A stretch of 64,000 nucleotides of DNA from Candidatus Doudnabacteria bacterium (lineage in GTDB: Bacteria > Patescibacteriota > Doudnabacteria > UBA920), in NCBI GenBank assembly GCA_963768175.1, contig CAVYGQ010000001.1, positions 100,481 through 164,480 of the forward strand. The letters run 5' to 3'. Made by a program: the position numbers and the translations under genes. The notes under the pieces are model-generated. The model worked only from the letters and a program-made list of their open reading frames with translations. It was not told the origin of the DNA and ran no database searches. Positions 1,428-63,338 of the stretch are shown here, one piece after another. Position 1 is the stretch's first letter; every line of letters starts with the position of its first letter.

Positions 1428-1513
1428 TTCGGCGTCATCCTGAGCGGAGCGAAGGATCTCTTTCTAGGTTGAGATTCTTCGGTCGGATGCTACTGCTTCA
1501 GAATGACGCCGAA
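1428..1513. repeat. Palindromic hairpin element, family 1 (core GGCGTCATCCTGAGCGGAGCGAAGGATCTC and its reverse complement)
   Basis: An inverted repeat, ttcggcgtcatcctgagcggagcgaagg ... cttcagaatgacgccgaa, lies just upstream of recJ. Related copies occur at 3160-3247, 8594-8698, 29472-29542, 30770-30870, 30958-30995 and 32128-32172. Confidence 0.8.
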
Positions 1514-1524
1514 AAACCATAATT

Positions 1525-3408
1525 ATGCCTAAAATTTGGAAAGTAAAAACCAAAATTCCCGATGACATCGCGCAAAATTTATCGGAGTATCCGGAACTTT
1601 TGCGGCAGCTGTTTTTTAATCGTGGATTGACGGGAAAAGACCAAATTCAGGATTTTTTGGAGCCAAAATACGAAAATCTATACAGCCCGTTTTTGTTTAA
1701 AGATATGGAAAAGGCGGTGGAGCGGATTTGGCAGGCAATTGACCGGAGTGAAAAAATTTGTATTTATGGCGACTATGATGCCGACGCGATTACTGCCAAC
1801 GCGGTGCTGGCGCAGACGTTTAAATATTTAGGCGTTGAGATTTTATCGTACATCCCTGACAGGTTTACCGAAGGATACGGCATTAATATCGATGCTCTGT
1901 TAAAGATAAAGGATGAAGGATCAAAGATAATCATAACCGTTGATTGCGGCACTAATTCCGCTGACGCGGCAGAGTTTTGCAAAAAAAATAATATCGATCT
2001 AATTATTACCGACCATCATGAAATCATCGGAGAGGTTCCTGATGCTTACGCGCTGATAAATCCCAAAAATCCCGATGACAATTATCTATACCGCGATATT
2101 ACGGGAGTCGGGGTGGCATTTAAGCTGGCTTGCGGGATTTTATCAAAACGTGAAAAAATTATCGCGCGTTTTGAACCCTCACCCCTAGCCCCTCTCCCAA
2201 AGGGGGAGGGGAAGCCCGGAGTTGTGGGATGGGAAAAGTGGCTGCTTGATTTGGTGGCCATCGGCACGGTGGCGGATTGCCACAGCCTACTGGGGGAGAA
2301 TCGGATATTAGTAAAGTATGGTTTAAAAGTTTTGGCCAAGACGAAGTGGATTGGTTTACGCGCGTTGATGGAATCCGCGGGTTTGGCAGAGGTGTCCCCT
2401 CTGCAGCAGAGGGGACACCTCTGCCCGTTGAAGCCGCTTGATACCTATACCCTAGGCTTTATCATCGCGCCGAGATTAAACGCGGCGGGCAGGCTGGAGC
2501 ATGCCGGCATTGCTTTGGATCTATTGCTGGAAACCGATGCCAATCGCGCAAACGAAAAAGCCCGCAAACTGGAAGCCATAAATACGCGCCGGCAGGGGCT
2601 GACTGCGGAGGTGTTAAGCGAGGCCAAGGAAAAGGTCTTATTGCTTAAGGAAAGAAAAGTTTTGGCACTTGTAGGTGAAGGTTGGCCCAAAGGCGTAATG
2701 GGCCTGGTCGCCGGTAAATTGGCCGAGGAATTTTATAAGCCTACGATTGTGTTGGAAAAAACGGAGAATTTATGCACTGGTTCGGCCAGAACCGCCGGCA
2801 AGTTTGATATTTTGGAGGCTTTAAAGTTTTCTTCCGAGCATTTGTCCAAATTTGGCGGCCATAAACAGGCCGCTGGTTTGAGTTTAGAGGCCAATAAATT
2901 TGACCTTTTTTACCAGAAACTATTGGAATATGCCGAGGTAAAAATTGCGCCGGAATCGGCACAAAAAGCCCTTGAGCTGGAAGCAAAACTTGAGGGTCAT
3001 GACCTAATACCTAACACCTATAACCTAATATCTAAACTCCAGCCATTCGGCGTGGACAATCCCACTCCAAAATTTTTAGTTTCCAATCTTGAAGTTTCAT
3101 CAATCCGCATGGTCGGCAAGCAAACCCAGCATTTGCAGGTGAGATTTATATTGCCTTTTCGGCGTCATTCTGACCCTGAGCGGAGCGAAGGGGAAGAATC
3201 TCAATCAAAAGGAGAGATCCTTCGCTCCGCTCAGGATGACGCCGGGGTGAGTGGCAGGGAAATCGCCGGTATTATGTTTAATGCGCCGGATTTTGCCAAA
3301 ACTTTGAAAATCGGCGATACTGTAGATGTCGCGGCAGAGTTAATTGAGGACGGGTGGAACGGGAAGAGGGAAGTGAAGTTGCGCATCGTAGACCTAAAAA
3401 TTATCTAA
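1525..3408 (+). CDS. recJ: Single-stranded-DNA-specific exonuclease RecJ (DHH/DHHA1), with three in-frame palindromic insertions
   Basis: The DHH motifs (ICIYGDYDADAITA, IITDHH) and a DHHA1 region with an OB-fold C-terminus are present. Extra peptide segments are encoded by palindromes at 2189-2211, 2387-2423 and 3160-3247. Confidence 0.9.
   Translation: MPKIWKVKTKIPDDIAQNLSEYPELLRQLFFNRGLTGKDQIQDFLEPKYENLYSPFLFKDMEKAVERIWQAIDRSEKICIYGDYDADAITANAVLAQTFKYLGVEILSYIPDRFTEGYGINIDALLKIKDEGSKIIITVDCGTNSADAAEFCKKNNIDLIITDHHEIIGEVPDAYALINPKNPDDNYLYRDITGVGVAFKLACGILSKREKIIARFEPSPLAPLPKGEGKPGVVGWEKWLLDLVAIGTVADCHSLLGENRILVKYGLKVLAKTKWIGLRALMESAGLAEVSPLQQRGHLCPLKPLDTYTLGFIIAPRLNAAGRLEHAGIALDLLLETDANRANEKARKLEAINTRRQGLTAEVLSEAKEKVLLLKERKVLALVGEGWPKGVMGLVAGKLAEEFYKPTIVLEKTENLCTGSARTAGKFDILEALKFSSEHLSKFGGHKQAAGLSLEANKFDLFYQKLLEYAEVKIAPESAQKALELEAKLEGHDLIPNTYNLISKLQPFGVDNPTPKFLVSNLEVSSIRMVGKQTQHLQVRFILPFRRHSDPERSEGEESQSKGEILRSAQDDAGVSGREIAGIMFNAPDFAKTLKIGDTVDVAAELIEDGWNGKREVKLRIVDLKII
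3160..3247. repeat. Family-1 palindromic element inserted in-frame in recJ
   Basis: ggcgtcattctgaccctgagcggagcgaagg ... ccttcgctccgctcaggatgacgcc encodes FRRHSDPERSEGEESQSKGEILRSAQDDAG without interrupting the ORF. Confidence 0.8.
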
Positions 3409-3483
3409 ACATCTAAACATATAAACATTTAAGCATTCAGTAGTTGCTTATATGTTTGCATGTTTAAATGTTAATATGTTTAT

Positions 3484-3885
3484 ATGAAACTTATCATCAA
3501 CACCGACGGCGGGGCGCGCGGTAATCCCGGGCCGGCGGGGATTGGCGTTGTAATTGCCGATGGCGTTGGGCATATCATCAGCCGCCACAAAAAATATATC
3601 GGCGAAGCGACCAATAACGTAGCGGAATATAAGGCCTTGATTTTGGCGTTAAAGGAAGCGCACAAGCTCAAAACTGATCAACTGTTGGTAAATATGGATA
3701 GCGAACTAATAGTCCGGCAAATGCAGGGCAGGTATAAAATAAAAGAGCTGTCGCTCAAGCTTTTGGCGGCGGAAGCGTTAAAACTCATCAGCCAATTTAA
3801 AAACGTGATTTTCCATCACGTCCCCAGAGAACAAAATAAGGAAGCGGATAAACTGGTAAACGAGGCGATAGATAAAGTTATCTAA
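3484..3885 (+). CDS. rnhA: RNase H family protein (type 1 RNase H-like)
   Basis: The translation carries the DGGARGNPGPAGIG..EATNNVAEYKALILAL pattern of the RNase HI fold with DEDD catalytic residues. Its size (133 aa) is consistent. Confidence 0.7.
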   Translation: MKLIINTDGGARGNPGPAGIGVVIADGVGHIISRHKKYIGEATNNVAEYKALILALKEAHKLKTDQLLVNMDSELIVRQMQGRYKIKELSLKLLAAEALKLISQFKNVIFHHVPREQNKEADKLVNEAIDKVI

Positions 3886-7479: not shown

Positions 7480-7857
7480 ATGAATATAAGAACGGCTCTT
7501 CCCAAAGATTTCGAAAGAATCAAGGTATTGATTGCCAGACATCCTAAACAGCTTATTCAGATTAACCTGCCAAAGCCGAAGGATTTTTTTGTGGCGGAAA
7601 AGGACGGTGAAATAATCGCCTGTTGCGCTTTGGAGGTATATTCCAAAAGAATGGCGGAGATTCGTAGCTTGGTGGTGGACCAGCGTTATTGGAGGCAGGG
7701 GATTGCCTCTAAGTTAATTAAGGAGTGTTTAAAAAAAGCTAAAAAATTTAAGGTTTACGAGGTACTTGGCGTGACCGGCTCGGTGTTGTTGTTTGAAAAC
7801 CAGGGCTTTAAAATGTTTAATAACGAGAAATACGCGCTGTTGAAAATCATGAAGTAG
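7480..7857 (+). CDS. GNAT family N-acetyltransferase
   Basis: An acetyl-CoA binding motif, VVDQRYWRQGIASKLI (Q/RxxGxG/A), is present. Confidence 0.7.
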   Translation: MNIRTALPKDFERIKVLIARHPKQLIQINLPKPKDFFVAEKDGEIIACCALEVYSKRMAEIRSLVVDQRYWRQGIASKLIKECLKKAKKFKVYEVLGVTGSVLLFENQGFKMFNNEKYALLKIMK

Positions 7858-8068
7858 GTGTGCGCGAACGAGAACCAGATATCTAACGACGGAGAATATC
7901 CGTTGTTTTTTGTTGTTCACACCCCAAAGCTTTAGCGAAGGGGTGTGAACAACTTTAGTTGCAAAAAGGTTCACCCAGCGCTAATTTACGCTGGTTTATT
8001 ATTGATGCTGGTTTAAAATTAAGCGATTGACTTTAAGACTGTTTATGAGTATATTTAAATTAGTGCTG

Positions 8069-8090
8069 GGTGAACGAGCGTATACTATAT
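8069..8090 (+). promoter_or_regulatory. Candidate LexA operator (SOS box) in the dinB promoter
   Basis: GGTGAACGAGCGTATACTATAT matches GGTGAACGTTCGTATATTGTAT upstream of lexA (35562-35585) at 20 of 22 positions. It overlaps a TATACT -10-like hexamer. Confidence 0.45.
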
Positions 8091-8245
8091 CAATATAAAC
8101 ACTAAATCCTAAAAACTAAAAACTAAACAAATTATAAATTCTAAAATATAAAGTACAAACTGCTCCGTTTAAGGTTTCTGTTTAAAAATTTATGATTTAT
8201 GGTTTGTTTAGAGTTTAGAAATTAGATTTTAGATTTTTTGAATTT

Positions 8246-9643
8246 ATGCAATCCGTCATTATGCATCTGGACATGAATAGCTATTTTGCCTCTGTAGAAC
8301 AGCAGGATAATTTAGCCTGGCGTGGAAAGCCTGTGGGGGTATGCGAACATTTGGGAGGCATTATTATTGCGGCTTCGGTAGAGGCTAAGCGTTGGGGCAT
8401 TAAAACCGGCACGCCCGTCTGGGAAGCCCGCAAGCTTTACCCCAAAATTATCATTAGCCCCACGCATCCGGACCGTTACCGTTTTTTTAACCGCTCTATG
8501 GTTAAGGTTGTGTCCGATTACACTTCCGCCGTGGAGGTTTACAGCATAGACGAGGTTTTTGCGGATTTGACCAAGGCTTGCAATGTCCGTCTCTGCCGGC
8601 GTCATTCCGAGCGAGTGCATCCGAGCGAGGAATCTCTTATTAGGCTAAGTGTAAGAGATCCCTTGTCCTCGGATGCACTCGGACTCAGGATGACGCCTGG
8701 GGAGAGCATGGCCGACCCTTTTGAAGAAGCTGTAAACATCGCTAAGGAAATCAAGCGGCGGTTTAAGGCCGAAGTGGGAGACTGGCTAAGGTGCAGCATC
8801 GGCATCGCCGAAAATAAATTGCTGGCCAAAATCGGTTCGGATTTTAAAAAACCCGATGGACTAGTGGTTATAACCGACAAGGGGCATCCTTGTGCAGCAC
8901 AAGGATGCCCCTTGTGGCTTTCTAAAGACGATATATACGATCGTCTGCGTCTTACCGACATCCCCGGTATTGGCCGGCGCCAAGAGAATAATTTAAACCA
9001 ACTTGGCATTAAGACGCTTAAAGAATTACGTGATTTTCCCAAAAGCCATTTAGTTGCCAGGTTCGGCAACATTATGGGCCATCATTTGTATAATATCGGG
9101 CAATTGCAGGGAACTTGGAAAGCTCCCGTCCATCAGGAACAAGAAATTAAGTCCATGGGCCATATGTATACTTTGCCGCAGGAGTTCCGCCGGCCGGAAT
9201 TTTTTATGCCCGTTCTCTATAAATTATGCGAGATGGTCGGCCGGCGCCTGCGCAGGAAGAGTTTAATGGGCAACCTTATTTACTTTTATTGTCACGATAA
9301 AGATTATCAGGGATTCGGCAAAAGCGTTAAGCTTGGATATTTTGTGCAGGACGGCAGGGAAATATTTTTGGTTGCCGCGGATATATACGCGGATCTGTTA
9401 CGCGGATCTAAACGCGGAGCGTTGGGGGTAAAGCTCATCGGCGTTACCGTGGCAGGCCTTCGGCCTTATGTCCATCAGCTTAGTTTGTTTGGTGATGTTG
9501 AGCGGCGGCTTAAGGCGACAAAGGCCCTGGACAAGATTAACGACAAATACGGGGAATTTACCATTTTGCGCGCGCAAATGCTGCCGGCCGGCAAAGCCTT
9601 TGCCGATTCCATAGGTTTTGGCAGGGTAAAGGAGCTTGGGTAG
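8246..9643 (+). CDS. dinB: DNA polymerase IV (Y-family, DinB) with two in-frame palindromic insertions
   Basis: The translation shows HLDMNSYFASVE, the finger/palm motifs and a little-finger domain. Insertions are encoded at 8594-8698 (family 1) and 8879-8915 (a perfect palindrome). Confidence 0.9.
   Translation: MQSVIMHLDMNSYFASVEQQDNLAWRGKPVGVCEHLGGIIIAASVEAKRWGIKTGTPVWEARKLYPKIIISPTHPDRYRFFNRSMVKVVSDYTSAVEVYSIDEVFADLTKACNVRLCRRHSERVHPSEESLIRLSVRDPLSSDALGLRMTPGESMADPFEEAVNIAKEIKRRFKAEVGDWLRCSIGIAENKLLAKIGSDFKKPDGLVVITDKGHPCAAQGCPLWLSKDDIYDRLRLTDIPGIGRRQENNLNQLGIKTLKELRDFPKSHLVARFGNIMGHHLYNIGQLQGTWKAPVHQEQEIKSMGHMYTLPQEFRRPEFFMPVLYKLCEMVGRRLRRKSLMGNLIYFYCHDKDYQGFGKSVKLGYFVQDGREIFLVAADIYADLLRGSKRGALGVKLIGVTVAGLRPYVHQLSLFGDVERRLKATKALDKINDKYGEFTILRAQMLPAGKAFADSIGFGRVKELG
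8594..8698. repeat. Family-1 palindromic element inserted in-frame in dinB
   Basis: ggcgtcattccgagcgagtgcatccgagcgagg ... cctcggatgcactcggactcaggatgacgcc encodes CRRHSERVHPSEESLIRLSVRDPLSSDALGLRMTPG. Confidence 0.8.
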
Positions 9644-9792
9644 AAAAGACAAGGACTGTCCTTTTGCAGGTAATGCCAAGTTTTAAGGACAGTCCTTGCG
9701 GAAAATATGGAAGTTCGCCGGGGCTGATTTTGACAAACACCAAAATAAATAATATACTAATTCAAGCATAGAATTAACTGAAATTTTAAAAT

Positions 9793-10593
9793 ATGGTTAA
9801 CTTAGATAATCCCATCCCATCTGATAACGAATCTCGGCCCGGCAAAAATTTAAATTATCCAGCCAAGATTATAGGCGCGTCAATAATAATCGGCGCGGTT
9901 ATGATTTCCGGCAGCTTATATTACGGTTTTAAAGAGCTGTATAAGCATTTGGATTACCTGATTCAGACGCCGGCTACCCAGGTTCAACCCGCCGCAGCCC
10001 CTTCTGCCACAGCGCCGTCGGTCGCAGCCCCAACCGCGGCTCCCACCACTGGCGCCGTTAACATTACTTTAAAACCCAATACTCCTTATTTGGGCGCCAG
10101 CAACGCCAATGTTACCGTGGTTGAATACGCGGACTATGAGTGTCCGTTTTGCGAGCAATTTTTTAAGAATGTTTTACCCGAGTTAAAAGCAAAATACATA
10201 GATACCGGCAAAATTAAGTTTTTCTACCAGGATTTCGCTTTTTTGGGCCCGGATTCCAACACCACAGCGGAAGCCTCCCATTGCGCCGAAGACCAAAATA
10301 AATTTTGGCAGTACCACGATTATCTTTTTAGCAACCAAGGGGCGGAAGGCAGCGGCTGGGCTACGTCAGATCACCAAAAACAATTTGCCGTGGCAATTGG
10401 TTTAAACACGGCGCAGTTTAACCAGTGCCTGGACAGCGGCAAATATAAGCAGGAAGTGCTGGATGAAACCTCCGCCGGCAAAAGTTACGGGGTCAGCGGT
10501 ACTCCCACGCTCTTTGTCAACGGTACGGCCATTGTAGGAGCTCAGCCTGCCACTGCCTTTGAAAAGGCCATTGACGCGGCGCTGAATAAATAA
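9793..10593 (+). CDS. DsbA-family thiol:disulfide oxidoreductase, membrane-anchored
   Basis: It has an N-terminal TM helix, an Ala/Pro-rich linker and a thioredoxin fold with a CPFC active site. Confidence 0.75.
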   Translation: MVNLDNPIPSDNESRPGKNLNYPAKIIGASIIIGAVMISGSLYYGFKELYKHLDYLIQTPATQVQPAAAPSATAPSVAAPTAAPTTGAVNITLKPNTPYLGASNANVTVVEYADYECPFCEQFFKNVLPELKAKYIDTGKIKFFYQDFAFLGPDSNTTAEASHCAEDQNKFWQYHDYLFSNQGAEGSGWATSDHQKQFAVAIGLNTAQFNQCLDSGKYKQEVLDETSAGKSYGVSGTPTLFVNGTAIVGAQPATAFEKAIDAALNK

Positions 10594-21085: not shown

Positions 21086-21706
21086 TTATGCGAACTGTTG
21101 CAACTGTCCTAAAATGGCCTGTTCCAGCTGAACAGTATCATAATGGCGTTGAGGCTTGATGTGTAAAATATTTAACTCTGAGGCTCTCAAAGCCCCGTCT
21201 AAAAAATCATCTCTTAATTTTCTATTGAAATAATTATGGGTATAATCATCCAGTTCAATAACCAAAAGTGGCGACAAATAAACTTTGTCAAAGATTACAA
21301 AATCTACTGTCTTTTTGTTTATCCTGTTAAAGTTGCTGTAAGTGGAATTTGTGCCGTATCTTTCCAGTCCGCCTTGGACTTCAATGATTCGGGATAAGGC
21401 AACCTGTGGCATAATAAAATACCTGTCCTTGATTATTTCCTGTAGCACTCCGAAAAACTTGTATTCGGTTTGGGTCATCAGGTATCGCTTTTTTCTGAAT
21501 GGATAAATTTTATCGTCTTTTTTTACTTCCTGAATTTTTGTATTGCCAGCATTACTAGGCGGTAAAGGTATCTCGGAATAATTTTGCTTTGAGCTTTTTA
21601 TGATGTAACTGGCAAGAATGATTATGATTATTAAACCAAATAAAAAATCCATAAATTTGCTTTTAGAAACACAAAGCCCCGGTCCAGCCGGGCTTTTACA
21701 CCCCAT
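21086..21706 (-). CDS. DUF2726-domain protein (NERD/restriction-endonuclease-like fold), membrane-anchored
   Basis: An N-terminal TM helix precedes the DUF2726 signature (TVDFVIFDKVYLSPLLVIELDDYTH ... RDDFLDGAL...LNILHIK). Confidence 0.55.
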   Translation of the reverse strand: MGCKSPAGPGLCVSKSKFMDFLFGLIIIIILASYIIKSSKQNYSEIPLPPSNAGNTKIQEVKKDDKIYPFRKKRYLMTQTEYKFFGVLQEIIKDRYFIMPQVALSRIIEVQGGLERYGTNSTYSNFNRINKKTVDFVIFDKVYLSPLLVIELDDYTHNYFNRKLRDDFLDGALRASELNILHIKPQRHYDTVQLEQAILGQLQQFA

Positions 21707-22000
21707 ACCCCTTTCGGGATATGACCATAAGACAGTAGCTGAACGCGGGGTTCAGTATGTCTTATGGTTTTACAGCCGTGCCTGATTAAAGGTTTAGGCC
21801 ATTCAGTTGTGATTAAATTATACCAAACTTGACAACAATTTTAAAGGGGTGTATGGTGGAGTTAGTTCATTAAAAAGTTAATAATTAAACGTAAGTTTTA
21901 TTTCTCCTCCCTCGGAGTAAGACAGGGGCTATGCCGTTTTGAACACAAAAACGGTGTGGCGTTTTGACCGCTTGTCTCAGCCATTAGAGGCCTTACAAAA

Positions 22001-27909: not shown

Positions 27910-27994
27910 TTGTTAATTAACGTTGAGATGGGCACCTTCTCGTAGCGAGAAGGTGCCCATATTTTAAGTATAAAAGATGTTATAATTAAGCTGT

Positions 27995-29225: not shown

Positions 29226-29476
29226 TATCAGCAATTAAACCCCCACACCAATTTGATATAAATTTGTTAAGGGTTTAGCAAAATCCTCCAACCATTTCAA
29301 AATGAATTGGTGTGGGGGTAAACCAAAGACAGTTGGCCTCCGACTGAAACGTCGGAGTTAATTATCATCGCAAGATGATTGCCCACCGAGGAAGTGTAGC
29401 GCGCCCATTCATGGGCTGCAGCCGATAAATCGGCGCGCTACATCACACTCGGGTAAGCCCGAGTATTTTTGTTCGG
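29226..29476 (+). ncRNA. Candidate structured sRNA (promoter, five consecutive hairpins, intrinsic terminator); class unknown
   Basis: A TGGTATAAT -10 at 29217-29225 is followed by stems aaacccccacaccaatt/aattggtgtgggggtaaacc, ctccgac/gtcggag, atcatc-gcaa-gatgat and gtagcgcgcc/ggcgcgctac. The final stem cactcgggtaagcccgagtg is followed by atttttg. Confidence 0.3.
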
Positions 29477-29542
29477 CGTCATCCTGAACGAAGTGAAGGA
29501 TCTCATTAAAGAGATTCCTCGCTGCGCTCGGAATGACGCCGG
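29472..29542. repeat. Family-1 palindromic element in the rplJ leader region
   Basis: ttcggcgtcatcctgaacgaagtgaaggatctc ... gagattcctcgctgcgctcggaatgacgccgg. Confidence 0.8.
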
Positions 29543-29728: not shown

Positions 29729-30244
29729 ATGCCAAAAGCTAAATCACAAAAGATTGAAGATCTTAAAGAACTTACGGCCAAACTTAAAGAGGCCAAAGGC
29801 GTGGTCTTTTCCGATTACCGCGGCACAACCGTAAAAGACATGGACATTTTCCGCAAAACCCTGCGCAAGGAAAAAGTCTTTTGCAAAGTCTACAAATTGA
29901 CTTTGGTTAAAAGGGCCATGAAAGATGCCGGCTTAGACGGAGAAATCGCCGACTATAAGACGCCGGTAATACTTTCGGTCTCCAGCGACGACGAAACCAC
30001 CCCCGCCCGTTTGGTCAAAAACTTGTCCAAAGACTTAAAGACTATTTCGGTTTTGGAAGGCATTGTGGACAACAAATTGGTCAACAAGGCGCAAGTTTTG
30101 GCTCTAGCCGACTTGCCGAGCAAAAACCAGCTGCGCGCGCAAATCATCGCCACCATCAATGCGCCGGTTACGGGATTTGTCAATGTTTTGGTTGGCAATA
30201 TCAGAGGCTTGATAAACGTGCTCAACGCAGTCGTAACTAAATAA
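29729..30244 (+). CDS. rplJ: 50S ribosomal protein L10
   Basis: The N-terminus KSQKIEDLKELTAKLKEAKGVVFSDYRGTTVKDM is typical of L10. Confidence 0.9.
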   Translation: MPKAKSQKIEDLKELTAKLKEAKGVVFSDYRGTTVKDMDIFRKTLRKEKVFCKVYKLTLVKRAMKDAGLDGEIADYKTPVILSVSSDDETTPARLVKNLSKDLKTISVLEGIVDNKLVNKAQVLALADLPSKNQLRAQIIATINAPVTGFVNVLVGNIRGLINVLNAVVTK

Positions 30245-30332
30245 TCATTTAAACATCAAAACATTTAAACATATAAACACGAGGCAGACGCTTAAATGCT
30301 TATATGATTAAATGTTTAAATGAAAGGAATAT

Positions 30333-30769: not shown

Positions 30770-30870
30770 ATGTCATCTCGAGCGAGTGCATCCGAGCGAA
30801 GGATCCATTCTTTGATAATATAGCATTATTATTTCAAAGTCATCCCGAGGGCTTTAGCCCGAGGGATCTC
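30770..30870. repeat. Family-1-related palindromic elements (two units) downstream of rplL
   Basis: gtcatctcgagcgagtgcatccgagcgaaggatc and gtcatcccgagggctttagcccgagggatc are each hairpin-forming. A further unit lies at 30958-30995. Confidence 0.7.
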
Positions 30871-30902
30871 TTCTAAGATAATATCGATTAAAATTAAATA
30901 TT

Positions 30903-32127: not shown

Positions 32128-32172
32128 GCGAAAGGAAAGATCCCTCGCTTCGCTCGGGATGACTTTTCTATA
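32128..32172. repeat. Family-1 palindromic element half (gaaagatccctcgcttcgctcgggatgac)
   Basis: It is the reverse-complement version of the family-1 core. Confidence 0.7.
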
Positions 32173-39149: not shown

Positions 39150-39151
39150 TT

Positions 39152-39240
39152 TTTCTACTAAATACTAAAGTAACTAAATACGAAAGTGAGCAAAAGAAGG
39201 TTTAGTATTTCGCCCCCTTCGTATTTAGTAGAAAAAAAGA
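39152..39240. terminator. Long hairpin (bidirectional terminator-like) after the GH1 gene
   Basis: tttctactaaatac ... gtatttagtagaaaaaaa is an extended stem with flanking T/A runs. Confidence 0.4.
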
Positions 39241-46788: not shown

Positions 46789-46949
46789 ATATTTTGACCG
46801 TAATTGCGATAAACAGTCGCCACGGCAGTTAAAAATGAATACAAAAGTATTTTACAATAAAATCGTAAATATGGCAAAAATAATTAAAGCTACAGGGGAC
46901 ACTTCTTCCAGAAGTGTCCCCTGTAGCGGTTGATCAGTTTTTGACAAAA

Positions 46950-48123: not shown

Positions 48124-49013
48124 TGACAAAAACGACGGAAATGACAAAATTGACAAAAATAAGAATCATGCTTTATTTTTGCTCATTTTTGCTCATTTTT
48201 TTAATTTTTGTCATTTTATTCGGTTTTGTTTTTCCGGAGCGCGTTATCCTTCCCCAGTATTTCCATCTAGGACCGCTAATTATCCGTTATTACGGCGTTA
48301 TAATAGCCCTTGCCGCCGTTAGTGGCTTTTACTTGGCGATAAAAAGAGCGCCGCAATTTGGCCTTGAGCAAAAACGTGCCGAGGATATTTTGTTTTGGGT
48401 AGTTTTAGGAGGTTACGTTGGCGCGCGGTTGTACCATGTATTATCATCAATCGGTTATTATTCGCAAAACCCCACAGGTATTTTTAAAGTCTGGAACGGC
48501 GGTCTGTCCATTTACGGCGCCGTCCTCGGTGGCATTTTAAGTCTGTGGGTTTTAAAAAGATTGTACACCGTGCACTGGCCACTGCTTGCTCTTTTGGACT
48601 GGCTCGCGCCTTGCGTCTTAGTTGGGCAAATCATCGGCCGCTTTGGCAACCTGTTTAATTACGAAGCTTTTGGCTATCCGACCAATTTGCCTTGGAAAAT
48701 GTTTGTGCCCGAAATATTCCGCCCAATCCAGTACGCGTCGGCGGCATTTTTCCACCCATGGTTTTTGTACGAGGCTTTAGGCAATATCATTATCTTAGTT
48801 TTTTTGCTTAAAATTTTTAAACCCAAAGCCGCCGGAGAGGTTGTTTTTATGTACCTTTTATTGTATAATAGTTTAAGATTTGCTTTGGAATTTTTGAGAA
48901 TAGACAGCACTTTTATAGGTTGGGCGAGGCTAAACGCGAGTGTAAGTCTGTTTTTGATATCGGTATCTTTGGGTGGGTTATTTTATGTCAGAAAACGTGT
49001 TAAAACATCATAA
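48123..49013 (+). CDS. lgt: Prolipoprotein diacylglyceryl transferase
   Basis: It is polytopic and has the Lgt signature G(Q)IIGRFGNLFNYEAFG, with a conserved Y..H region. Confidence 0.85.
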   Translation: MTKTTEMTKLTKIRIMLYFCSFLLIFLIFVILFGFVFPERVILPQYFHLGPLIIRYYGVIIALAAVSGFYLAIKRAPQFGLEQKRAEDILFWVVLGGYVGARLYHVLSSIGYYSQNPTGIFKVWNGGLSIYGAVLGGILSLWVLKRLYTVHWPLLALLDWLAPCVLVGQIIGRFGNLFNYEAFGYPTNLPWKMFVPEIFRPIQYASAAFFHPWFLYEALGNIIILVFLLKIFKPKAAGEVVFMYLLLYNSLRFALEFLRIDSTFIGWARLNASVSLFLISVSLGGLFYVRKRVKTS

Positions 49014-53376: not shown

Positions 53377-53381
53377 GGTCT

Positions 53382-53440
53382 CCTAATTCCTAATTCCTAA
53401 TTCCTAATTCCTAATTCCTAATTCCTAATTCCTAATTCCT
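53382..53440 (+). repeat. Heptanucleotide microsatellite (CCTAATT)x8 plus a partial unit, ending 5 nt before the rmlA start codon
   Basis: It is a perfect tandem repeat in the rmlD-rmlA intergenic spacer and replaces any recognisable RBS. Confidence 0.9.
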
Positions 53441-53444
53441 TTTC

Positions 53445-54179
53445 ATGAAAGGCATTATTCTCTCCGGCGGCAGCGGCACGCGCCTGCATCCTTTAACCAA
53501 AGTTACCAGTAAACAGCTTTTGCCGGTTTACAATAAACCGATGATTTTGTATCCGCTGGAAACCCTGCTTAAGGCCGGCATCAAAGACATTTTGATAATT
53601 ATCGCGCCGGACCACCCGGGTGACTATATGAAACTGTTGGGCTCAGGCCGCGAGTTTGGCGCCCGTTTTTCTTACGAAATTCAAGATAAGCCGGAAGGCC
53701 TGGCCCAGGCTTTTATTATTGCCGAAGATTATATTGGAAGCGATAACGTTTGCATGATTTTAGGCGACAATATTTTTGAAGACGATTTTTCCAAAACTAT
53801 CAAAAATTTCAAAAAAGGCGGGCACGTTTTTGCCAAAAAGGTGACCGATCCCCAGCGGTTCGGCGTTGTTAAATTCAACGAAAATATGGACGCGGTTAAA
53901 ATTGAAGAAAAGCCCAAGGAGTTTTTGTCCGATTACGCAATTACCGGGCTTTATCTTTACGACAATCGCGTAGTACAAGCGGCAAAATCGGTTAGGCCAT
54001 CGGCGCGGGGCGAATTGGAAATTACGGAATTGCACAACTGGTATTTAAAAAGGAATGAACTGAAAGTAGACATAGTCAAAGGGCAGTGGATAGACGCCGG
54101 CACTTTTGAATCGCTGCACCGCGCCGGCGAGCTTATGCGCCGGAAGGCATTAAATAAACCGACACCAATCCACGAATGA
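53445..54179 (+). CDS. rmlA: Glucose-1-phosphate thymidylyltransferase
   Basis: The motif MKGIILSGGSGTRLHPLT is present, with a short (244 aa) nucleotidyltransferase fold. Confidence 0.9.
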   Translation: MKGIILSGGSGTRLHPLTKVTSKQLLPVYNKPMILYPLETLLKAGIKDILIIIAPDHPGDYMKLLGSGREFGARFSYEIQDKPEGLAQAFIIAEDYIGSDNVCMILGDNIFEDDFSKTIKNFKKGGHVFAKKVTDPQRFGVVKFNENMDAVKIEEKPKEFLSDYAITGLYLYDNRVVQAAKSVRPSARGELEITELHNWYLKRNELKVDIVKGQWIDAGTFESLHRAGELMRRKALNKPTPIHE

Positions 54180-58919: not shown

Positions 58920-61900
58920 ATGAGCATCAAAACATTCTCTAAATTTAGTATGGGCTTAAAGGTCATCGCTATTTTAGGTATTACCTCTATGGCTGTTTTG
59001 GCGTTAGTCCCTAGGGAGGCTGGCGTTTTGCTGGCAGATAATAATGCTAATTGCACTACTTCCACCACGCCGACGTTTAACCCGTATCCGGTTTCAAATA
59101 ATCCCGGTAACTGTCAGGACTACCCGTTCATCGCTTCCAAAGTAATACACAGCGATGGTTCGCAAACCGGTTTTAGTACTGGTTCAATACAAGCCCAACC
59201 CGGTGATAAAGTTGAAGTCCAATTATACATAGATAACGGAGCCGCTTTAGGTTCTCCTGCTCTAACAAATATTCAATTAACAACCAGTGCCGTTCTAAGC
59301 GCAGGTTCTTCCCATTCCGTTTCGGCTTCCGTTACAGCCAGCAATGCCAATAACTCTTTAAGCGGTAGCTTAAACATTTTAACCCCAAACAGTTCCACTT
59401 TGCAGGTTGATCCTTTAACCGGGCAATGGTACCAGCAAACTACCTCCATGGGCAATTTGGGCAATATTGTTAACACTACGACCCATTTGCCCGACCAGGC
59501 CGCTTGTTTCCCTTATGTCCGATTTATTAATATGGTTTTTGATGTTGTCGGGCAACAGGTAACCCAATCCGTTACCTTAACCGCCACGCCAAACCCTGTT
59601 TGTATTGGAGCTTTAACTACCTATTCAATAACTTCTACTGTAAATGGCCCGATTGTTTGGACCTCAACTTTTAACGGCCAACCGACCGGTGAGAACAATT
59701 CTTATCCCGGACAGAATTTAACCCCGCAAAACGGAGTGTATGTTTGGAGCGCCGTGGGTGATTATTGGGGCGATCATTTCCACAGCGGCAATCCCTTGGC
59801 CGATGTCGGTACTTGGACTAAAACGGCGACCATTAATGGCGTGCAGAGCAATACCGTAACTTTTCAGGTTAAGGATTGTACGCCCCCCGTACAAAAATCC
59901 GCCAGCATCACCGCCACTTTAGGCAGCGCCAATAAAGCTCAGTGTTTATATAACGGCAATGTGACTTGGCAGAGCAGTGGTTATGATGCCGTGGCGGTTT
60001 ACGTCCAATCGGTTGGCGCCAACGACTATTCGCTGGTGGCTGCCAACCTTCAGGGCAGTACCAATATTCCCTGGTTCATTCCGGGCAGAAATTACGAGTT
60101 TACCCTTTGGACGGTCAGTGTTTCCAACGGCGTATACACCAAAGTAAGCCAGATTGCCGATCCGGCGATTGTCAACGTGCCTGCTTTGGATTGTACCGTG
60201 CCGGTGACTTTAACCTGCAGTGCTTCTCCTATTTTAGCCAATATCAACGATCCAGTAACTTTTGGTGCTTTAGGCGGTTCCGGTCCATACTCTTGGACTA
60301 ATGGCGAAAATCCCGCCACTGGTAGTGGCCAGAGTTTTACCACCAGTTTTTCTTCAGCCGGTAACAAAACCGTGACTGTCCACAGCCAAGACGGCCAGAT
60401 TGCCTATTGCAGTGTGACTATAAAACAGCCGGTTCAGAAACCCGCGACTTTAAATTGTGCTACCCCGACCATCCAAGCCAATATTGATGATACCGTAACC
60501 TTTGGTGCTAATGGCGGCACCGCTCCTTATTCCTGGAGTAATGGTGGCAATCCTTCCAACGGTAGCGGCCAGAATTTTTCTACCAAGTTTTCTTCTTCCG
60601 GCAACAAAACGGTTACCGTCTCTAGTTCCGACGGTCAGACTGCCTATTGCAGTGTGACTATAAATCCGCCCCCCGTAAACAAATCCGCCAGCATCACCGC
60701 CACTTTAGGCAGCGCCAATAAAGCTCAGTGTTTATATAACGGCAATGTGACTTGGCAGAGCAGTGGTTATGATGCCGTGGCGGTTTACGTCCAATCGGTT
60801 GGCGCCAACGACTATTCGCTGGTGGCTGCCAACCTTCAGGGCAGTACCAATATTCCCTGGTTCATTCCGGGCAGAAATTACGAGTTTACCCTTTGGACGG
60901 TCAGTGTTTCCAACGGCGTATACACCAAAGTAAGCCAGATTGCCGATCCGGCGATTGTCAACGTGCCTGCTTTGGATTGTACCGTGCCGGTGACTTTAAC
61001 CTGCAGTGCTTCCCCTAATCCGGTTGACATTAACAATCCGGTTATCTTTACCGCCACTGGCGGCGCCGCTCCTTATAATTGGAGTAACGGCGGCTATCCT
61101 TCCACCGGCAGCGGCCAGAGCTTTTCCACTACTTATTCCACAGCCGGCACCAAGACAGCTACGGTTTCCAGTTCCGACGGCCAGACCGCTAACTGCAGCG
61201 TGGTTGTCAAGCCGACAGTACAGCAAAATGCCCAGTTAACTTTGACTAAACAGGTCAAGAATCTGGGTCCCAGCCAGACCACCCTTTATGATAAAAGCGT
61301 GCTGGCCGAGCAAGGCGATGCCGTCCGCTATCTAATAACCGTAACCAATATCAGCTCCGTAACCGCCAACAATGTTTCAGTGACGGATACTCAAGGATCA
61401 AGTGCCGGTAATGTTACGACTTCCGGGTCAAACGGCAGTGCTGTTCCAATTTCTGGCAGCTTACAAAACGGTTTAAACTTCGGCTCTTTAGCCGCCGGAA
61501 GTTCGGTTTATATTACCTATACTTTACCGGTAAATGTCAACAGCGGCAGCATTGACAATACGGCAACGGTCAGCGCTTCCAATGCCAACAGTGCCAGCGA
61601 TTCGGCCGTTGTTACTATTACAGCAATTCCTATTTGCCAGGCCGACAGCAATTTTGCCTTAAACGCTTCTACTCCGGTCAAAAACGGCTCAAGCTATTCG
61701 GTTACTTTAACTTGGTCTTCCACAGGGAATAATCAAATTAAAATCACCCAAATTAATCCGGGCGCCGGTTATGAAAATACTATAGCCATCGGCAGTTCGA
61801 GTGGCAGTCAAACTATTAACGGCCTACTTCCGGGCAGCACTTACATCTTTAAGATGTATGATGTTTCTTGCAGCCAATTTTTAACCTCCGTCCAGGTTGT

Positions 61901-63338
61901 TACTCCTTCTAATCCGGGTCAGCTGACTTGTTCTGTTCAAAGTTCAACCATCAATTCGGGCTCTGCGGCTAACTTTACCGCCCAGGGCGGCATGGCTCCT
62001 TATAACTGGAGCGGTGATGGCAGTCCGTCAAGCGGAAGCGGTTCTTCTTATAATCCGGTTTACACCAACACTACTACGTCTTCCATAAATCACAGTGTTT
62101 CGGTTACAAGTTCCGACGGCCAGACCGCTAACTGCAGCGTGGTTGTTAACGGCCAGCAGCAAAATAACGGTAACATCAATAATAATTGCGTCAACAATTC
62201 CTGCAACGACACGACTAATAATACGGATAACTCTGTCAATAACAGCAATAATCCAATCACAACCAACACCGACAATTCCATTAATAATAGCTATAATAAC
62301 ACCAGCTCAATAAATGACAGCTACAACAATTATACCTATAACAACACGGTATATATTAGCAGCAACGGCAATGTGGTGCCGGCTAATCAGTTCAGCCAGC
62401 TCTCTATAACCAAAAGCGTCAGGGATGTTTATAACAATTATAACAGTTACAACAACTATTATAACGGAAGCTTCAGCAACAGCGTCAGCGCCAATAACGG
62501 CGATACCGTGCAGTTCCAAATTGTGGTCAGTAACAGCGGCTCGGCGACCGCCAACAACGTGCGCGTTACCGACATCCTGCCTTCGGGATTGAATTTGGTT
62601 TACGGCAGCGTAACGGTTAACGGGAGCCAGGCTTCCGACAACAATCTTTCCAACGGCATGTATTTGGGCAGCTTAAGCTCCAGCCAGTCGGAAACCATAA
62701 CCTTTTCGGCTACGGTTTCGGGATACGGCTCTTCCAGTAGCATCCAAAATACGGCTACAGCCAGTTCAGATAATGCCGGTTCGGTTCAGGCCAGCGCTTG
62801 GGTATTTGTTAACGGCAACGGCAATGTTTTGGGCGGCAACGTTAATTTAACCTACAGCAAGAGCGCGCTTAACAACACCAAAAATCAAGACGCCACCGCG
62901 GTAGCCGCATCCAGGGAAGACTTTATTACCTACACTTTGACCGCTTCCAACAGCGGCAACACGCCAGCTACCAATTTCATTATTACCGATGATTTATCCC
63001 AGGTTTTGCCTTATGCCGACATGACAGACTTCGGCGGCGGCAGCCTAAACGGCAATGTGATTACTTTCCCCGGGATAACCGTGCCGGCCAACGGTAGCGT
63101 CACCAGGAGCTTTGAGGTTAGGGTTAAGTATTCGCTCTCTAGTAATTTAAGCTATGTTATGACTAACACTTACGGCAATACCGTGACCATTAGGATTAAC
63201 ACCCCGCAAGTCTTAGGCGCCTTTACCGCTCCCAAGACCGGCGCGGACACCAATGCCTTTGTCTTTGCCGGAATCTTAACGTCCGGACTTGCGATCTACA
63301 AAAAGAAAAATTTGCTGATGAAATTGATATTTAATTAA
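58920..63338 (+). CDS. Giant (1472 aa) repeat-rich cell-surface protein with candidate sortase sorting signal
   Basis: The N-terminus has a signal/TM segment. Several ~90-aa Ig-like modules are present (TFGA.GG.APYSW.NG.NP..GSGQ.F.T.FSS.G.KTVTV.S.DGQ.A.CSV.), with three DUF11-like domains and an Asn-rich low-complexity tract. The C-terminus reads TAPKTG, then a hydrophobic stretch, then KKKN. Confidence 0.8.
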   Translation: MSIKTFSKFSMGLKVIAILGITSMAVLALVPREAGVLLADNNANCTTSTTPTFNPYPVSNNPGNCQDYPFIASKVIHSDGSQTGFSTGSIQAQPGDKVEVQLYIDNGAALGSPALTNIQLTTSAVLSAGSSHSVSASVTASNANNSLSGSLNILTPNSSTLQVDPLTGQWYQQTTSMGNLGNIVNTTTHLPDQAACFPYVRFINMVFDVVGQQVTQSVTLTATPNPVCIGALTTYSITSTVNGPIVWTSTFNGQPTGENNSYPGQNLTPQNGVYVWSAVGDYWGDHFHSGNPLADVGTWTKTATINGVQSNTVTFQVKDCTPPVQKSASITATLGSANKAQCLYNGNVTWQSSGYDAVAVYVQSVGANDYSLVAANLQGSTNIPWFIPGRNYEFTLWTVSVSNGVYTKVSQIADPAIVNVPALDCTVPVTLTCSASPILANINDPVTFGALGGSGPYSWTNGENPATGSGQSFTTSFSSAGNKTVTVHSQDGQIAYCSVTIKQPVQKPATLNCATPTIQANIDDTVTFGANGGTAPYSWSNGGNPSNGSGQNFSTKFSSSGNKTVTVSSSDGQTAYCSVTINPPPVNKSASITATLGSANKAQCLYNGNVTWQSSGYDAVAVYVQSVGANDYSLVAANLQGSTNIPWFIPGRNYEFTLWTVSVSNGVYTKVSQIADPAIVNVPALDCTVPVTLTCSASPNPVDINNPVIFTATGGAAPYNWSNGGYPSTGSGQSFSTTYSTAGTKTATVSSSDGQTANCSVVVKPTVQQNAQLTLTKQVKNLGPSQTTLYDKSVLAEQGDAVRYLITVTNISSVTANNVSVTDTQGSSAGNVTTSGSNGSAVPISGSLQNGLNFGSLAAGSSVYITYTLPVNVNSGSIDNTATVSASNANSASDSAVVTITAIPICQADSNFALNASTPVKNGSSYSVTLTWSSTGNNQIKITQINPGAGYENTIAIGSSSGSQTINGLLPGSTYIFKMYDVSCSQFLTSVQVVTPSNPGQLTCSVQSSTINSGSAANFTAQGGMAPYNWSGDGSPSSGSGSSYNPVYTNTTTSSINHSVSVTSSDGQTANCSVVVNGQQQNNGNINNNCVNNSCNDTTNNTDNSVNNSNNPITTNTDNSINNSYNNTSSINDSYNNYTYNNTVYISSNGNVVPANQFSQLSITKSVRDVYNNYNSYNNYYNGSFSNSVSANNGDTVQFQIVVSNSGSATANNVRVTDILPSGLNLVYGSVTVNGSQASDNNLSNGMYLGSLSSSQSETITFSATVSGYGSSSSIQNTATASSDNAGSVQASAWVFVNGNGNVLGGNVNLTYSKSALNNTKNQDATAVAASREDFITYTLTASNSGNTPATNFIITDDLSQVLPYADMTDFGGGSLNGNVITFPGITVPANGSVTRSFEVRVKYSLSSNLSYVMTNTYGNTVTIRINTPQVLGAFTAPKTGADTNAFVFAGILTSGLAIYKKKNLLMKLIFN
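59895..60226 (+). repeat. 332-bp internal direct repeat, copy 1 (identical copy at 60681-61012)
   Basis: By eye the two stretches are nucleotide-identical, with a period of 786 bp (262 aa). Confidence 0.85.
60681..61012 (+). repeat. 332-bp internal direct repeat, copy 2
   Basis: See copy 1. Confidence 0.85.

Follow-up and report, generated by a model that had tools for sequence, protein, structure and literature searches.

What accounts for two strong hairpin-forming sequences inside the coding region of a DNA polymerase gene, and are they kept in its product? This question is raised by dinB, located in a stretch of 64,000 nucleotides (hereafter the window) of a Candidatus Doudnabacteria genome (GCA_963768175.1, contig CAVYGQ010000001.1). 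One of the two sequences, here called element 1, is a copy of a palindromic repeat, family-1; the other, palindrome 2, is a perfect palindrome. The explanation that we favor and consider likely is that palindromic repeat DNA was inserted in permissive loops of a functional Y-family polymerase and is translated, in the manner of the Rickettsia palindromic elements (RPEs).

Two in-frame inserts in a Y-family polymerase

The 465-amino acid product of dinB matches the Pfam domains IMS, IMS_C and IMS_HHH_1, and its closest solved structure is that of a DNA polymerase IV (7yll; E 5e-46). An AlphaFold2 (AF2) model built from 35 homologues was matched by Foldseek to Dpo4, DinB and pol kappa with target-normalised TM-scores of at most 0.77, and the palm, fingers, thumb, little finger and DE motif of the Y-family architecture are all present. 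The DE pair at residues 102-103 (SIDEVF) is conserved and aligns to the IDEAY motif of solved polymerases, and the protein retains every residue that is invariant among the 35 homologues. Its relatives carry the labels Patescibacteria or Candidatus Doudnabacteria. Together, the domain and structure matches bear out the polymerase family to which an earlier reading of this DNA (the original prediction) had assigned the gene; its label as an SOS polymerase is putative.

Element 1 is bounded by inverted termini (CGGCGTCATTCC...GGATGACGCCT) and, counted from a codon boundary, spans 102 nt, i.e. exactly 34 codons without a stop, encoding R118-P151 (RRHSERVHPSEESLIRLSVRDPLSSDALGLRMTP); the sequence GGCGTCATTCCGAGCGAG is located within it at 8598-8615. 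Its predicted structure is a single long hairpin of -72.9 kcal/mol (z = -9.0), and none of 200 shuffled sequences was equally stable. Palindrome 2 also folds strongly (z = -6.7) through perfect arms of 19 bp, and its 37-mer at 8878-8914 encodes K212-L223 (KGHPCAAQGCPL), 12 codons that are likewise in frame and free of stops. In the whole window we observed 14 perfect palindromes whose arms measure 11 nt or more, as compared with none or one in shuffled windows. The original prediction had described two hairpin insertions in this gene, a family-1 element of 105 bp encoding 35 residues and a perfect palindrome of 37 bp. Both are present, and the claims that they are in frame, that the palindrome is perfect and that it encodes the peptide given above all hold. 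The sizes had to be corrected, the extra length of element 1 being one flanking codon and palindrome 2 measuring 39 nt, and the two are not alike in kind, since only element 1 belongs to a dispersed family.

Aligned with solved DinB, residues 111-163 of the query, which include element 1, pair with residues 111-118 of the chain alone, and the region of palindrome 2 appears as a gap of 13 residues at PCAAQGCPLWLSK. Element 1 is absent from the relatives L003 and L005 as well as from the solved homologues. In the AF2 model, a step that the original prediction had called for, both inserts lie between secondary-structure elements. The residues of element 1 follow the palm strand of the DE motif and a short helix and precede helix 158-177, with a predicted local distance difference test (pLDDT) score below 50 at residues 120-150. 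The insert of palindrome 2 separates strand 206-210 from helix 227-233 and comes immediately after the last palm strand, at a point that we take, by homology with Dpo4, to be approximately the palm-thumb junction. As predicted by this model, both are locations at which the fold would tolerate additional residues. Transcribed and translated as part of DinB, both inserts would give extra, probably disordered, loop residues.

The two sites were compared in a set of three contigs syntenic with the window (recJ, RNase H, PEGA protein, mreB, ..., GNAT, dinB, dsbA) and 80 species-representative loci, from which about 84 dinB genes were recovered. A sister clade of DinB is without inserts, carrying a fixed loop of 13 amino acids at the site of element 1 (site 1) and the sequence 'RPEDKxxLY' at that of palindrome 2 (site 2). 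By the same measure, site 1 in the window's clade ranges from 5 to 82 and site 2 from 26 to 78 amino acids, with a content that is variable as well, and both loops are hypervariable among ~40 related Doudnabacteria orthologues. None of the ~84 genes is visibly interrupted at either site.

This comparison bears on the possibility that both segments are lost on the way to the mature protein, through intron splicing, intein excision or translational bypass. Strong local structures in a coding region could be read in this way, and we regard such removal as highly improbable. Segments of 102 and 39 nt are far under the size of group I and group II introns; an intein would be far longer than 34 or 12 residues, and no Hint domain is detected by Pfam. 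Rfam has no family for either hairpin, neither in a gathering-score scan of the window nor in a permissive scan of 8400-9100, the chance matches to miRNAs and sRNAs having E > 0.1 and none coming near the gathering score. Moreover, the inserts in the ~84 homologues all keep the frame and are free of stops, a constraint that would be unnecessary if they were excised. Given that the frame is always kept, that the inserts are too small for introns or inteins and that they match no RNA family or Hint domain, the sequences strongly imply that the inserts are translated. An assembly artefact is disfavored because inserts recur at these sites in assemblies made independently; both alternatives that the original prediction had named, splicing and chimeric assembly, thus lose ground.

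Table 1. Positions in the window of dinB, recJ and the palindromic sequences in and around them.
Feature	Position	Strand	Basis or remark
dinB, Y-family DNA polymerase (DinB/Pol IV-like), host of both insertions	8246..9643	+	Pfam, PDB, Foldseek
Element 1, family-1 palindromic repeat in dinB; two inverted arms tagged CGGCGTCAT, loop ~8641-8650	8597..8698	+	inverted termini, fold
Palindrome 2, perfect 39-nt palindrome in dinB (19+1+19), centre GTGCAGCAC	8877..8915	+	palindrome search, fold, covariation
recJ (DHH, DHHA1, RecJ_OB)	1525..3408	+	second repair gene with palindromic inserts
Perfect 41-nt palindrome (20+1+20), centre CTGCAGCAG, in frame in recJ	2385..2425	+	
Family-1 copy, intergenic, 14 nt upstream of recJ start	1430-1511	+	
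Family-1 copy, in frame within recJ (RRHSDPERSEGEESQSKGEILRSAQDDAG)	3160-3244	+	
Family-1 copy, intergenic, upstream of rplJ (29729)	29474-29541	+	
Single family-1 arm, downstream of rplL	30772-30806	+	
Single family-1 arm, downstream of rplL	30839-30871	+	
Single family-1 arm, intergenic	32134-32163	-	

Further features of this polymerase and its surroundings were observed. Residues 9-11 (8270-8278) read D-M-N, invariant in the clade, as against D-x-D in the solved 7yll; N11 is invariant in 35 sequences, and the clade also bears a distinctive VCEHLGGIIIAAS motif. D-x-D is found at that position in other Y-family polymerases as well. The little-finger region has two more variable sites (alignment columns 501-536 and 570-600; window residues ~350 and 385-395), at which the window carries a short variable stretch only. 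They are filled in P0049, P0074, P0017, P0021, L008 and L009, some of the inserts being perfect palindromes of the GVGAGLKPAPT type. Intergenic DNA of the window contains AT-rich inverted repeats made of short recurring words (8100-8240; 3399-3487 versus 30234-30323; 39150-39236; 48126-48229), the example directly upstream of dinB reading ctaaaaactaaaaac / gtttagagtttag, and similar word repeats fill the dinB loops of other Doudnabacteria (KFQISN and NDKN-type peptides).

A dispersed repeat and a shared palindrome

Element 1 belongs to a dispersed repeat family. Family-1 is represented in the window by four full copies and three single arms, i.e. 11 arms in 64 kb, and its core motif has nine matches as compared with 0.3 expected. 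Each arm is ~30-45 nt long, begins with (C/T)GTCAT and ends with GGATCTC; the window copies have the termini CGGCGTCAT...ATGACGCCG, and the TGTCAT variant is found in L001, L005 and L015. Four of the seven loci are inverted pairs, each forming one long hairpin. The single arms, with a 5-bp ATCCY/RGGAT stem, an interior of 11-25 nt and a CTC tail, are unstable alone (z between +1.4 and -2.3). Other copies had been placed upstream of recJ, in recJ, upstream of rplJ and after rplL by the original prediction; the first three were recovered, and after rplL we found single arms only. The genes concerned were identified as recJ and as those of L10 (rplJ) and L7/L12 (rplL).

Within genes, family-1 occupies dinB site 1 in the window, L001 and L022, and site 2 in L015. 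At the family-1 site of recJ, L003 carries an orthologous copy, L001 a different, GTCATTGCGAGG-type element and L005 none, the recJ of L005 having a family-1 copy at another site; in dinB as in recJ, inserts are therefore present in some orthologues and absent from others. All seven copies inside long open reading frames (ORFs) are in frame, via three different frames of the element (RRHSE, VSFRA and VIPKPE), and two of the three full intergenic copies hold stops when translated in the RRHSE frame. The original prediction had left the choice between active elements, tolerant loops or both. The in-frame copies in recJ and in dinB of other genomes, as well as the insert-free sister clade, the hypervariable loops and the AF2 model, speak for both. 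Element 1 would accordingly represent a non-autonomous, mostly intergenic repeat resembling repetitive extragenic palindromic (REP) sequences or miniature inverted-repeat transposable elements, copies of which may survive in the genes of a compact genome when they keep the frame, lack stops and land in loops.

The family extends beyond the Doudnabacteria. In a metagenome survey by exact-pattern scan, ~22 of the 120 matched stretches have a partner arm; those without one, which could represent solitary arms or matches arising by chance where the GC content is high, were left out. The family-1 architecture with both arms was found in at least 22 contigs, which have a GC content of 54-69% and apparently stem from soil bacteria. 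Nineteen of the 22 elements lie within open frames of 137 codons or fewer and were read as intergenic, and the remaining three are spanned by longer, Arg-rich frames that look spurious. Judged by these matches, family-1 is widespread across very different bacteria and normally extragenic, and the metagenome and window elements look like a cross-phylum repeat superfamily, for which we found no name in the literature searched. The metagenome elements have a CGGCGTCATCCYGAGCG...GGGATGACGCC architecture plus an extra inner hairpin (GCCGTTCTTCAGGCGG); loci of this type include L099, L119, L123, L143, L145, L147, L150, L152, L156, L157, L170, L173, L196, L200, L205 and others. An Rfam scan of 12 metagenome loci carrying family-1 yielded no matching family. 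The peptide encoded by the element gave three weak matches only in a phmmer search of 1.84 billion representatives, and a word-index search with 44 amino acids returned no candidate host protein.

A candidate for the mobilizing enzyme was considered and rejected. Beside dinB and dsbA, L001 (10457-11162) and L005 (9400-10140) carry a gene for a Y1 transposase of the IS200/IS605 type that resembles the REP-associated tyrosine transposases (RAYTs; NF047646, E 6e-21, 75 bits, just under the NCBIfam cutoff of 80). This gene is flanked by inverted repeats of its own, AAAGGTGTCAGGAGCC / GGCTCCTGACACCTTT, which are unrelated to family-1, and has no copy in the window; in none of the window, L001 and L005 did we find a RAYT gene with family-1 units on either side (a REPtron). 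Two truncated copies of the C-terminus of the RAYT-like gene are located at 11640-12035 of L005.

Palindrome 2 differs from element 1 in its distribution. It has no further copy in the window, and none away from the orthologous site in ~1 Mb of related loci. It thus does not form a dispersed family, and these searches lend no support to a mobile origin. At its position a perfect palindrome is found in five lineages (the window, L001, L005, L017 and L028) whose DinB proteins are 57-78% identical. Common to these lineages, palindrome 2 is an older feature and is not equivalent to element 1. Between lineages, 8 of the 20 pairs have changed on both sides, i.e. are compensated, and in the core of 16 pairs all 80 cells across the five lineages are Watson-Crick, with no G-U at all. 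RNA-level selection would tolerate wobble and an occasional mismatch. Given that palindrome 2 is perfect in every lineage and free of wobble, the alignment points to a DNA-level process, either template switching or conversion from arm to arm or repeated fresh insertion. We propose that palindrome 2 is a relatively old insert at the junction that follows the last palm strand, and that its perfect symmetry in the DNA has been either conserved or restored several times over in several lineages, most likely via an intrastrand template-switch or gene-conversion-like process.

A perfect palindrome is also present in recJ (GGCAGAGGTGTCCCCTCTGC A GCAGAGGGGACACCTCTGCC), where it makes up an insert of 9 amino acids relative to L001, L003 and L005. 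It has a TGCAGCA centre similar to that of palindrome 2 and no arm sequence in common with it. Likeness in the centre and not in the arms, together with the lack of a second copy of palindrome 2 and its perfection in all five lineages, would be consistent with both palindromes having been born locally, by fold-back or template switching at a stalled fork, and the two dinB features would then be of unrelated origin. We consider this very unlikely. On a neighbor-joining tree of DinB with the inserts masked, the palindrome is distributed patchily, and the hairpin found in L003 is a different one that recurs in the distant L026, a pattern that repeated insertion or replacement fits as well. A local birth would in any case concern the origin only and is compatible with translated inserts in permissive loops as the explanation of the present state.

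Turnover of the loops and concentration of palindromes in dinB

Inserts were counted in the dinB genes when at least 8 amino acids above baseline, and hairpins were called strong at z <= -3 against their own shuffles. Of the 52 inserts, 24 form strong hairpins, which fall into several unrelated families, and the other 28 are non-hairpin, mostly AT-rich low-complexity sequence. Site 1 of L003, L005 and L008 has a content other than family-1; the other hairpin types in dinB include a GGFQTRPY-type palindrome, an AAATGRH...RYSA type in L003 and L026, and further ones. The closest relative of the window on the tree, L003, carries different hairpins at both sites, indicating that the content of the dinB sites turns over.

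Several observations weigh against palindromic repeats that merely insert where they are tolerated. The lengths of family-1 between the inverted termini (82, 85, 88 and 139 nt) are not multiples of 3, implying that the in-frame inserts contain extra bases. Comparison of filled and empty recJ sites revealed no clear target-site duplication or target motif, the 64-kb window contains no Y1 transposase, and no transposase was linked to family-1; the absence of further copies of palindrome 2 belongs here as well. In addition, no member of the insert clade has fewer than 11 extra residues at site 2, and perfect palindromes are enriched in dinB relative to its neighbor genes. Although the inserts are presumably neutral, pure neutrality predicts neither the persistence at site 2 nor this enrichment.

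The enrichment was determined in 82 loci, with the window left out, for perfect palindromes that have arms of 14 nt or more and lie in open frames of 200 codons or more. Ten of the 12 such palindromes lie in dinB, which accounts for 19% of the ORF bases (binomial p = 3e-6), and one of the two outside dinB belongs to the recJ gene of L001. Lowering the arm threshold to 12 nt gives 11 of 16 in dinB. These counts include orthologous palindromes, and the independent events amount to ~5-6 in dinB versus 2 elsewhere. Counted in this way, the palindromes still favor dinB, much less strongly.

A bias of this kind would be accounted for, as would the extension of site 2 in every clade member, if the hairpins were functional cis-elements that tune the expression of repair enzymes, their position being kept by selection while their sequence turns over. 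As stems in mRNA or single-stranded DNA, they could act by directing RNase III cleavage, by making ribosomes pause at a domain boundary or by altering the stability of the mRNA. Every close relative has a strong hairpin at both dinB sites, with differing sequences, the changes in palindrome 2 are compensated, and site 2 directly follows the last palm strand, presumably at the domain junction known from Dpo4. This explanation, and likewise the routes proposed for it, we nevertheless consider unlikely. With 28 of the 52 inserts not being hairpins and a whole sister clade being free of inserts, a hairpin is not required; stems that are Watson-Crick only, without G-U, suggest homogenization of DNA over selection on RNA; the enrichment shrinks once orthologous palindromes are set aside; and a terminator and promoter scan of 7800-9900 detected no terminator-like tail at either hairpin, nor do these belong to an Rfam family. 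An unexplained bias of intragenic REPs to replication and repair genes similar to that seen here is reported in PMC3733652, and is a further point for cis-acting hairpins. In a more specific form, the two dinB loops and two recJ sites would be landing pads or maintenance sites at which hairpins are regenerated as perfect DNA palindromes and control the expression or activity of a mutagenic polymerase. Such landing pads, which we hold to be quite unlikely, would if real give that bias a mechanistic basis. Translated repeats in tolerant loops remain the explanation that we prefer.

Additional hairpins were observed in recJ and elsewhere in the window. A second GC-rich hairpin in recJ (2176-2215) encodes SPLAPLPKGEG, bringing the palindromic inserts of this gene to three, the family-1 copy included. 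Two perfect GC-rich palindromes are intergenic (27928-27960 and 46889-46927), the former located 19 nt past the end of an ORF and followed by a T-rich tract, which gives it the look of a terminator; these intergenic palindromes and the intragenic ones have short arm motifs in common (GGGCACC, GTGTCCCC). Unconnected with the palindromes, the window contains a match to the LOOT RNA (RF03000) at 21690-21800 on the minus strand (70.3 bits; gathering score 46.4), ~9 copies of a 7-nt tandem repeat (TCCTAAT) between genes at 53381-53450, and an ORF of 1472 amino acids (58920-63338) with internal repeats of 230-300 nt, two 300-nt copies of which are 99% identical.

Relation to known palindromic repeats

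The closest parallel is provided by the in-frame RPEs (Ogata et al. 2000; reviewed in PMC10969869). Like these, the family-1 elements are palindromic repeats of ~100-150 bp scattered over a small genome, found in frame in unrelated genes, absent from orthologues and located at positions thought to be compatible with the protein fold. RPE-4 and RPE-6 of Rickettsia end in CGTC (PMC3733652), a terminus in common with family-1 (CGGCGTCAT); the likeness is one of architecture and tag. The systems differ in the host phylum, here Patescibacteria/Doudnabacteria, in that several unrelated hairpin families fill the same two loops of one protein across lineages, and in that family-1 also occurs in intergenic DNA of high-GC soil bacteria.

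Di Nocera, De Gregorio and Rocco (2013) described intragenic REPs in uvrA, uvrB, uvrD, recB, polA and the error-prone dnaE2, such repair genes often being the sole REP-tagged genes of a genome (PMC3733652). Family-1 resembles these CGTC REPs in its terminal CGTC tag (with TGTC variants in L001 and L005; tags reading TGTC or CCTC also occur in the superfamily, PMC3733652), in a stem starting with AT, in inverted unit pairs that give larger hairpins, in the lack of a dedicated flanking transposase and in the concentration of intragenic copies in replication and repair genes, error-prone polymerases included. The defined CGTC families have a stem of 8-9 bp starting with AT, a loop of 4-5 nt and a CCA tail (PMC3733652), whereas the arms of family-1 have the short stem, long interior and CTC end described above and are unstable singly. 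The unpaired tag and the inverted dimers of the superfamily are thus present, the stem, loop and tail rules are not followed, and family-1 is therefore not placed in CGTC-1 to CGTC-4. The Patescibacteria also lie outside the five phyla covered by PMC3733652.

In its inverted pairs of REP-like units, which fold into a long hairpin and are presumably non-autonomous, family-1 is reminiscent of the REPIN/RAYT system (Bertels and Rainey 2011, PMC3116915; Nunvar 2010, PMC2817692), and a RAYT-like Y1 transposase gene adjoins dinB in two relatives. Unlike REPINs, family-1 lacks the GTAG tag, and the RAYT-like gene scores below the NCBIfam cutoff, has repeats of its own and is not in the window. For palindrome 2 and its recJ counterpart the coding palindromes of Nematomorpha mitochondria (Mikhailov et al. 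2019; PMC6649704) offer a parallel, being perfect inverted repeats in functional genes with both arms coding and with complementarity of the DNA preserved alongside coding function, as would apply here if the inserts are translated. The mitochondrial palindromes reach 284 bp and overlap conserved regions, whereas those described here measure 39-41 bp and would add non-conserved loop residues.

In the literature searched we found no description of such elements in Patescibacteria. By analogy with the known systems, the dinB inserts behave as RPEs or intragenic REPs, i.e. they are palindromic, in frame, polymorphic among orthologues and located in loops, element 1 being dispersed as well, and do not appear to be a new kind of element. 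Their occurrence would extend translated in-gene palindromic repeats from Rickettsia, a few Proteobacteria and Verrucomicrobia to the Candidate Phyla Radiation (CPR), also a group with reduced genomes, where such inserts inflate and fragment protein alignments and can mislead annotation. The ~40 orthologous dinB genes, in which the same two loops hold different hairpins, low-complexity sequence or nothing, constitute a natural experiment, and the wobble-free conserved palindrome offers a handle on how palindromes are maintained at the DNA level. The concentration in dinB and recJ independently echoes the published bias of intragenic REPs to repair genes.

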